NCBI GenBank assembly: GCA_051294375.1
Contig: CM119269.1
Coordinates: forward strand, 6,833,552 to 6,897,551
Length of the DNA stretch: 64,000 nucleotides
Origin: Paraspadella gotoi
Lineage: Eukaryota; Animalia; Chaetognatha
Direction of reading: 5' to 3'
Shown here: positions 40,601-43,600 of the stretch, piece after piece
How the letters are laid out: each line of letters opens with the position of its first letter
Position numbering within the stretch: position 1 is the stretch's first letter
Made by a program: the position numbers and the translations under genes
The notes under the pieces: generated by a model
The model's input: the letters and a program-made list of their open reading frames with translations, nothing else
Told to the model about the DNA's origin: nothing
Databases searched by the model: none

Positions 40601-43600
40601 AAATTTGGAATGAATGATCCAATGTGAATACAAATAGAAATATCGAGGCGAATTTCAATAATTGACCCCTGAGCCGAGATATGGGCCCTCTGGGGGGTCA
40701 CCTATTGGGGCAAAAAATCGTCAAAATTTTTTACAAATGTTTCAAATATTTTTGTTTTGAACAGTTGCACAGACGTTTACTCTTCCACAAAAACCTATTT
40801 ATTACCTCAAAAATGTAGTTTACCTTAATTTTCATCTTCATGAACATCAGCTGTTCAAGTCAGATTTGGAATAATTTTGGAAAAATTGGAAGTAAAACGA
40901 TGAACCATGCATCTTCAAACAATGCTTAATTATTGAAAATTTATTAATTTTAGTTTTATATTAGTTTTAGTACATGTTTAAGACGTCAATGCACCTGATG
41001 CTACTAAAAAATATTTAAAAAAAAAAAAAATTTAGCCTTTTTTGCCCCCCCAGGGGTCCAGCCCAAGGACCCTGTATCTCTTGTCAGGGGTTGAATATCA
41101 AAATTCGCCTCGATAGTTCCATTTATATCGTCATTATATCGACATTAGGACTGTAAAATTTCATAAAATTCGATCGAGTACTTTGGTGGGAACAGATTCT
41201 GGTCACAAAAAAGAGGTACTGTGGCGGTATATTCACACCGCCTCACGTCCACCATCGATCAGCCAAATCCATTGGCTCAGAGGGGGAATACATCATCCCA
41301 GGCGTAGTGTTCCATCCACAGTCCCAACGACTTCCCTCTGCGTTGGCAAAGCGAGACCGTCCTAGGGTACCGCGCCAGTGACTGGAGGCGTCACTGAGGG
41401 TCGGAAGCCCCCAAAGCCAACAGTGAGATGCCCCATCCCAATGGGCATCACAGGCAACCCGGCTGTTGCCATAGTACCACATTTTATAATATGAAGCCTT
41501 CTGTAGATAAGATTTAAATATTTTAATATTCAATTTGTTTCTTTAAAATTTTCATGGGCGTGATTTGCGCTGCATTATTTAAAATTTAGGTAATGATATT
41601 TATTAGAAATTATCTTAACTATGCACGCAGGCGAGTTTGTTCACATCACGCCGAACTACGTGACTAACGAAACCGTGAGACGAGACTTTGGCGACGTGGG
41701 TAAGGTTTTCGTCCACCAGTGGGGTCACTACAGGTGGGGTCTACAAGACGAAAACCCTGCCGAAATCGGTGACCCAGAGTGGTATTTCTCGACCGAGTCG
41801 AATCAGTACGAGGCGGTCCGATGTTCACTCAGCACCCAAGGCCGAGTCTTGGAGGCAAGGATGTGTACTTTCAGTAATGAGTGTAATTGCTCTATTTTTT
41901 TAGACATCAGTCCTCACAAGCCTTCTCTCTCATTCCCTATTTCACAGAGGATCGGAAAAAACGAGTACCGCCCTTGCAAATTGACCGACGGTCTGCCCGA
42001 CAGCGAAAAGTGTCGGTTTTATCCTAGCCAAGAGATGGAAAACCCGTCCAAGGTCTCGATCATGGACAGAAGATCGACGGCGAACGTTGACCAATTCTGC
42101 GAAACTGGCAGCGACGACCCTCATCGTCACAACGCCGAGGCCCCGAGTCGCATGAATCGGCTCTGCGGCGGGAAGAGCGCTTGGGACGTAATGCTGCAGC
42201 ACGAGGATTTCCGCGCCGCAGCAAATCCGCCGTCGGATCTCGGAGAAGCGGATGTCGTGCCTCTATTCAAGCTGGTACAAGCGACGAAAAGGGATTCGCG
42301 ATGCCGCATCTCTCTCGTTCTTGACGTCAGCAGAAGCATGGGGTCCGACGCAAAGTTGGAAAAGATGAACAAGGGCCTGCAGAAGTTGGTTCGTTACACG
42401 CTGAAGGAAGGCACTGAGATCGGAACGACCGTGTTCAGTTCCGGGGCTCACATTTCCTGCGGCATGACTACACTCTCCGACGAGAGCAGTCGAATCGATT
42501 TCGTCAACCGGTGCTTGCCACCTGGAAGCGGCGGCGGAACCAGCATCGGCTCGGGTCTGCTCAAGGGCGTCCAGAATCTCGGAGGACACCGCGGCGGGGA
42601 CCGTATCTTTCTCTTGACCGACGGCATACAGAATCATCCTCCGGCACCGACGGACTTCGAGGTGGTGGCGGCGTTGCAGCGGGCCAAAGTCTTCGTCGAC
42701 GCCATCAGCTTCACCGCCGCTGCCGACTCCTCAATGAAAGAGATCGTTAGAGCCTCCGGTGGCAACAACTTCTTCGACTCGAACAAAATCAACTCCAACT
42801 CTCTAAACGACGCCTTCGCCAAAAATCCTTGCGGCGACGCCGATGACGACGACTCCATAGAGCGTGACATCTCCTTAGCAAGCGACGCCGGCCCGGTCGA
42901 CGTCGCCGGGGTTCTCGGGTTCGTCGGCGTCGACTCTTCCGTCGGTCGCGATACCAAGTTTCTCCTCGACTACGAACACGTGGGATTCGCTAAGTCGGGC
43001 GCCGGGATTCGGGTCGAGTTGTCGAGTCCCTCGGGAAGGAACTACACCGAGGAATCTCCCGAGTACATCGTCGACGCTGAGTTCAAGACGATCGTCATTA
43101 CGATTCCAGGAAATGCGGAGGTGGGACGGTGGGATTACGTCATTCACCTGGCGGCCTCCTCCACCCAAACGTACAAGATAAACGTGCTGACGAAAGCGCG
43201 CGAAGACGGTGGATCCAAGATGGTGGCGCCCTTGACGGTCAGCGCGTCCATCCGATCCACGGACGTCTCTTATCCGTCACCTATGGTCGTCTACGGAGAA
43301 GCGGAGAAGGGAGGTAACCCAGTTTTGGGCCTTAGAGTCGTCGCCTCGGTGGATCGACCGGGACAGACAAAGCCCTACGAGTTGGAACTGCTCGACAACG
43401 GGCGAGGCGCCGACTCCGCTGCCGGCGACGGCATCTACTCGCGATATTTCAGCGCCTTCACGGAGATCGGGCGCTACTCGATCGGCGTTCGAGCCACGAA
43501 TCCAAACGGAACCGGCGTTGTCCGCGCCTTCGATCGAGACGGCGACGGCGGCGTCGAGTCTGTCCCCATCTTTAGCGACGAAGTAGTTGAAGATCAAGTC

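Follow-up and report, generated by a model that had tools for sequence, protein, structure and literature searches.

An intron of an anoctamin gene in the window (the whole stretch of DNA analyzed here, 64,000 nucleotides) contains an intron-poor CLCA paralogue, predicted to encode an uncleaved, membrane-anchored pseudoprotease that is likely dispensable now; we place the probability of this reading at about 0.6. The catalytic glutamate of the HExxH motif is absent from this protein, which carries HQWGH instead, and the presence of frameshifted copies of the gene in other samples makes its dispensability likely.

The nested CLCA gene is located on the forward strand and comprises three exons coding for 963 residues; the window allele is open over all 963 codons. 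Exon 1 (39698–40082) starts with ATG and encodes a signal-peptide-like hydrophobic start and the first half of the metallohydrolase domain (CLCA_N; PF08434, E 4e-30), ending at the donor G/GTAAGT. Intron 1 (40083–41630), with GT..AG ends, is filled with high-copy repeats, whose summed contig depth reaches 1e5–1e6. Many joints in these repeats skip about 260 bases, and a similar repeat apparently occurs near 48090–48300. Exon 2 (41631–41854) carries the active-site helix. The next 93 nt (41855–41947) are stop-free and in frame, yet most plausibly represent a GC-AG intron with the donor AG/GCAAGG and a polypyrimidine-CAG acceptor, because this stretch is missing as an exact 31-residue gap from P0024 and P0173, the two close relatives covering the region, and because its GC content is low (39% versus 55% in exon 2). 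Exon 3 (41948–44230) encodes the rest of the protease domain, including the Met-turn and the second zinc site, followed by a VWA domain, a beta-sheet-rich domain, the inhibitory and FnIII-like domains, a transmembrane helix and the stop codon. Vertebrate CLCA genes, in contrast, have 14 exons as tabulated in PMC9007345. The sequence TATAAAT (39521–39530) precedes the CLCA start and lies within the intron of the same-strand host. A tblastn search of the 64-kb window revealed no second CLCA.

The CLCA_N domain (PF08434 matches with E 4e-28 and 4e-30) followed by VWA (PF00092, E 3.5e-13) assigns the product to the CLCA family, and its best PDB match is the VWA domain of human CLCA1 (6pyo). With this family (PF08434 plus VWA; human CLCA1, CLCA2, and CLCA4; the “CLCAsin” metzincins) it shares the signal peptide, the metallohydrolase domain with His, His and Asp, the Met-turn, the second zinc site, the VWA domain with its MIDAS, and the beta-rich, inhibitory and FnIII-like domains, while Gln in place of Glu, Asn in place of the DEY tyrosine, the shortened loop and the intronic nesting set it apart. 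Hydropathy above 2 at residues 1–21 and 921–953 suggests a signal peptide and a C-terminal anchor; the putative transmembrane helix (44108–44182, hydropathy peak 3.2) is followed by a short cytoplasmic tail, and a C-terminal anchor is also found in CLCA2 and chicken CLCA1. The MIDAS motif DxSxS occurs as DVSRS (42323–42337) and its downstream T and D ligands are also kept, so that the DxSxS...T...D set is complete, with D329, S331, S333, T401, and D428 of the model in the family columns. Alignment and hydropathy thus agree with the initial annotation, which had described both the MIDAS and the C-terminal helix. An AlphaFold prediction, for which the six-row alignment omitted exon 1 and included translated intron 2, had a mean pLDDT of 43 and was not relied on.

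Positions 41705–41755 translate into 17 residues that include HQWGH, encoded by the codons CAC CAG TGG GGT CAC at 41714–41728 of the forward strand; the glutamine codon CAG (41717–41719) stands in place of that of the catalytic Glu, and both zinc-binding histidines are kept, as annotated initially. No other H[EQ][WF][AGS]H string occurs in any of the window's six reading frames, and the alignment places this one exactly on HEWAH of mammalian CLCA1/4, column by column. A single base change suffices for the E-to-Q substitution, and C at 41717 could therefore be an assembly error or a private mutation in a normal, active CLCA, which we consider extremely improbable. Contigs from seven of the nine public runs (X1–X9) of one organism were used for comparison, X1 being possibly the assembly's own sample. 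All five single-copy contigs bridging 41717 (X1, X2, X5, X6, and X7; two studies) have CAG at 41717–41719 and none displays GAG; they contain 0, 1, 3, 2, and 14 other letters, respectively, every one of them placed elsewhere. The X8 contig agrees at 41717, merely 3 letters from its end, and X9 provides no orthologous cover at this position. Such contigs collapse haplotypes and drop rare variants, and the five-of-five agreement bears on common alleles. The check on C at 41717 that had been proposed was thus run on assembled contigs and came out in favor of C, refuting an assembly error, barring a common G allele dropped by the contigs; the missing tyrosine and shortened loop that accompany the glutamine also argue against it.

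The alignment shows that the zinc ligands His156, His160, and Asp167, the Met-turn, Cys187, Cys250, His255 and the Glu of DEY are all retained, in line with the earlier statement that both histidines and the downstream D/E are kept. At 41747–41755 of the forward strand, DEN replaces DEY: the third zinc ligand D and the next E are kept, and the tyrosine has become N. The roles of Asp167, Tyr169 and the second zinc site are taken from the CLCA1 cryo-EM preprint (bioRxiv 10.1101/2025.10.18.683246), according to which Tyr169 of DEY is situated at the active site and forms a bond to the cleaved loop, and the loop entering the active site has Ala695–Pro714 on its primed side. In the nested CLCA the region of this self-cleavage and inhibitory loop (43520–43607, forward strand) is reduced by 11 residues relative to P0003 and P0173. 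The cleavage-site segment comprises 42 residues; its length is 53 in P0003, P0004, and P0173, and the median among 145 measurable sequences is 54. The loop region aligns poorly, and loops of 42 residues or fewer also occur in three of 92 HExxH proteins. The loss of the DEY tyrosine together with the shorter cleavage loop is more in keeping with an established pseudoprotease than with a recent point mutation, and the loss of both the tyrosine and part of the scissile loop strengthens the idea of an uncleaved, anchored protein. Conservation of the protease domain (46–50% to P0173 and P0024) is similar to that of VWA (45–49%). The Glu of DEY is invariant in all 154 aligned CLCAs, including those with a broken HExxH, which fits a structural rather than a catalytic role.

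Dead-protease CLCAs are already known, and the nested CLCA adds one more. Lenart et al. (2013; PMC3650047) reported CLCAs with substituted active sites, resulting from five independent losses, named Gln as the usual replacement of Glu in zincins, listed H-to-R and H-to-K as common CLCA active-site changes, and called the roles of inactive zincins unknown. Those CLCAs are likewise lineage-specific paralogues with a broken HExxH, but their usual changes hit His, whereas the nested CLCA keeps both His and Asp. Our survey comprised 152 sequences (the best 150 representatives of 50% clusters, the window model and P0173), with 19 mammalian matches excluded from the counts as redundant; 131 of the 152 cover the motif. 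HExxH is present in 111 of these and substituted in 20, the window CLCA included, and six of the 131 have Q at the position of Glu. Given this recurrence, a natural dead-protease CLCA is less of a surprise than the initial annotation implied. Losses of Glu alone, with both His and Asp kept, are seen in 6/131 sequences (HQ in two, HH in three, HN in one), the named cases being from Aplysia, Lingula, Saccostrea, and Branchiostoma. The tree requires at least 11 active-site changes, six of them Glu-only, compared with the five independent losses of the 2013 survey.

The DEY tyrosine is missing in all six Glu-only losses and in 13 of the 111 HExxH sequences, being kept in the other 98. Among phylogenetically independent pairs, substitution of any kind accompanies loss of the tyrosine (median p 0.03); this value covers any substitution, since the Glu-only set offers too few independent pairs for a phylogenetic test. 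The survey thus suggests a small family-level rule, by which loss of the catalytic Glu goes along with loss of the DEY tyrosine. Short loops (42 residues or fewer) were counted in seven of 15 substituted proteins against the 3/92 given above, with a cut-off and a loop pattern picked after seeing the data; once phylogeny was taken into account this association had no significance (median p 0.06–0.375), and it was dropped.

Phylogenetic analysis places the nested CLCA in a strongly supported clade with P0003, P0025, P0024, P0173, and P0004. P0024, 46% identical to it, has HQWGH and DEH, while P0173 has HEWGH and EEY; the truncated sequences of P0003 and P0025 stop short of the motif. The check for Q in relatives therefore gave a divided answer, positive for P0024 and negative for P0173. 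P0024 is sister to P0173 rather than to the nested CLCA, and a topology that groups both Q proteins in one clade can be rejected (p-AU 1e-6), so that Q either arose twice or reverted once, in P0173. The idea that the Q shared with P0024 marks an old conserved Q lineage is accordingly weakened by the trees. No further motif-bearing relatives were recovered by a search with the P0024 region (itself only, among 455 candidates), by a search with exon 2 (three candidates, none scoring) or by a metagenome locus scan (five weak matches, to the VWA region). Runs X6–X9 contain at least two more CLCA-like paralogues, on contigs of 2476 and 3258–3583 letters. These contigs are colinear over kilobases and the paralogues are thus probably intron-poor too; one of them spans 538 letters against 541 in the window across intron 2, which suggests that this intron is shared. 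The paralogue contig covering the motif differs from the window at seven of the 49 letters in 41709–41757.

The same substitution of the general base has been engineered in human CLCA1 (E157Q), CLCA2 (E165Q), and CLCA4 (E156Q). Autocleavage of CLCA1 E157Q is blocked almost completely (PMC6085540), which bears out the use of this mutation as the cleavage-abolishing precedent. Cleavage of CLCA2 E165Q is blocked as well (PMC10669480), CLCA4 E156Q is retained at full length with its potentiation of current abolished (PMC11231702), and E-to-Q likewise blocks self-cleavage of chicken CLCA1. Unlike these engineered mutants, the nested CLCA is natural and carries further losses in the cleavage apparatus. 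With the E-to-Q precedents and the losses of the tyrosine and scissile loop taken together, the product of the intact allele is likely self-cleavage-dead and anchored, as proposed initially. A mouse CLCA4a E-to-Q mutant, in which cleavage is only impaired and the protein is partly cut (PMC9007345), counts against an entirely uncleaved product. A literature search for CLCA E157Q cleavage and the plasma membrane, with most subscription papers outside its scope, returned no match.

The intact allele would thus code for a type I membrane protein of 963 residues that would still bind zinc without activating water, would not cleave itself and would be a poor substrate for cleavage in trans. Catalysis may have been lost first, after which residues needed only for cleavage would drift, while the fold and the ligand site of VWA would stay under selection. 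The remaining action would be binding, as a decoy or accessory to other CLCAs or through VWA-mediated adhesion, rather than shedding of a channel-activating fragment; in CLCAs that are cleaved, the released N-terminal fragment engages TMEM16A (PMC4360653). The dead CLCA could instead still be processed and released as a normal paracrine fragment, the cut being made in trans by an active paralogue or else by some other surface protease. Wild-type CLCA2 cuts E165Q in trans (1.5–6%; PMC10669480), the mouse CLCA4a mutant is partly cleaved, and the CLCA-like contigs from the same runs provide candidate paralogues, but, compared with the nearest relatives, 11 residues are missing from the loop required to enter the active site, and we regard this reading as very unlikely.

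Frameshift alleles of the nested CLCA are present in the sampled population. Two deletions, of 5 nt at 41634 and of 1 nt at 43150, are found in the single X7 contig (depth 20) that spans 41520–44100; deletions were resolved by position for X7 alone. The 5-nt deletion, in exon 2, leads to a frameshift and a stop after residue 138, and the 1-nt deletion, in exon 3, to a frameshift and a stop after residue 613. In X5 the contigs covering the matching stretches show 5 and 1 gap letters, given per stretch rather than per position, and X8 contigs break at 43150/43151. The absence of gaps at these sites in X1, X2, and X6 indicates that the frameshifts are polymorphic. X7 and a low-depth X9 contig contain 15 more gap letters, which depth arithmetic would place in the cleavage loop (43521–43607).

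A third lesion, G41947T, abolishes the putative acceptor of intron 2; it is found in all six covering runs, at about half the depth in four of them. If the GC donor joins the next AG, translation would stop after residue 228. With intron 2 retained the frame stays open (994 residues), as it does with the weak GT donor at 41863 (965 residues), and in either case the change could be harmless. The acceptor change belongs to a haplotype of five differences in 41900–42038, two of them intronic and three non-synonymous, which makes up roughly half of the depth in X1, X2, X5, and X6 and is the only one seen in X7 and X8. At 42767 the window reads A (Asn). T (Tyr) is found instead in the single-copy contigs of X2, X5, X6, and X7, with X1 showing both letters; since Tyr or Phe occupies this stretch in close relatives, the assembly probably carries the minor allele.

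Exons 2 and 3 contain 18 coding substitutions, nine non-synonymous and nine synonymous (pN/pS 0.31, p 0.014). The gene has been under purifying selection in the past, and null alleles are now present. Decay, for which a dN/dS near 1 had been named as the sign, is therefore seen in part: frameshift alleles exist, but pN/pS is 0.31, not 1. Neither the fixed disabling mutations nor the pN/pS near 1 expected of a pseudogene were found, the window allele being open and the frameshifts polymorphic. The frameshift alleles speak against an indispensable function; the pN/pS below 1 and the intact MIDAS are compatible with a current one. A comparable case is pig CLCA4b, a CLCA duplicate whose null allele is widespread without any apparent phenotype (PMC4608703). 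Like the nested CLCA it is a lineage-specific duplicate with a naturally segregating null allele, but homozygous nulls were phenotyped in the pig, and the abstract of that report mentions no active-site substitution.

The null alleles could also be ordinary recessive load in a non-catalytic surface protein that is still needed and is unrelated to the host anoctamin, acting in adhesion, in binding of mucus or matrix, or in the regulation of active CLCA paralogues. Conservation of the fold residues and the MIDAS is consistent with such a role, as are HQWGH in the related P0024 and the finding that CLCA2 E165Q still complexes with the wild type (PMC10669480). An analogy is offered by the catalytically dead ADAMs with HQxxH (cited in PMC3650047), which are likewise membrane-anchored zincin pseudoproteases and have been proposed to act as decoys or accessories, although they belong to another family with another domain set and provide an analogy only. 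On the other hand, two frameshifts and one acceptor change in only seven samples are several lesions for a needed gene, X7 displays no intact haplotype, and with the Q clade rejected (p-AU 1e-6) the Q shared with P0024 is no proof of a conserved Q lineage. We therefore consider a still-needed surface protein unlikely and prefer the uncleaved, anchored pseudoprotease that is now likely dispensable.

The nesting itself, which had been noted initially, was confirmed by Pfam scans of 292 ORFs of the window, which detected anoctamin exons on both sides of the CLCA gene. The upstream exon (38811–38974, its start approximate as taken from the ORF) matches positions 242–284 of PF04547, the next host exon is predicted at 44584–44909 in phase with it, and later exons with PF04547 matches lie at 47125–48057, all on the forward strand. 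The flanking exons join in phase across the intron 38975–44583, which places the CLCA gene inside this intron on the same strand. Near these exons the host presumably resembles anoctamins of the TMEM16A/B type. A candidate polyadenylation signal, AATAAA (44383–44388, forward strand), lies 3' of the CLCA stop inside the host intron; it could cut host anoctamin transcripts short.

Location in the intron of a possible partner raises the question of whether the intact allele is a working, tethered partner of the host anoctamin, with which it would be co-expressed from one locus, either as the cis auxiliary subunit suggested initially or as a dominant-negative that would counter shed CLCAs. The shared strand, the pN/pS of 0.31 and the complete MIDAS, which is the site by which CLCA1 and CLCA4 engage TMEM16A/B (PMC11231702), agree with this proposal, and a dominant-negative precedent may be seen in CLCA2 E165Q, which lowers store-operated calcium entry below control (PMC10669480). 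However, the full-length CLCA4 mutants H155A and E156Q yielded no calcium-activated current in transfected cells (PMC11231702), which argues against a cis activating subunit; if the product of the intact allele behaves in the same way, the host channel would not be activated by it. The existence of frameshift alleles and a nesting known from one genome also weigh against the proposal, which seems decidedly unlikely, although the protein may act as a decoy or dominant-negative. Position is the only evidence for a functional tie of the nested CLCA to the host. Equally doubtful is the fuller scenario in which a permanently tethered CLCA pseudoprotease moved into the intron of its partner anoctamin, the two now being expressed together and the CLCA serving as a cis regulator or dominant-negative decoy; if true, it would separate channel regulation from self-cleavage, place the CLCA–TMEM16 pairing far outside vertebrates and make the wild null alleles ready-made knock-outs.

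On the preferred reading of an anchored pseudoprotease, the nested CLCA would be of little importance if the gene is simply being lost. The natural occurrence of a laboratory substitution, together with the retained zinc ligands and MIDAS, the anoctamin nesting and the null alleles, nevertheless provides a convenient test of whether an uncleaved CLCA has any action at all. The nesting is the remaining curiosity and the part worth following; a literature search, with most subscription papers outside its scope, found no report of a CLCA nested in an anoctamin intron. The host anoctamin is a multi-exon gene (4630–49030, forward strand), with Anoct_dimer matches at 4630–16456 and Anoctamin matches at 38811–48057. 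It seemingly includes an unusually long low-complexity loop, encoded by putative exons at about 44584–46240. Exons similar to protein tyrosine kinases (PF07714) are present at 53492–56008 on the reverse strand.
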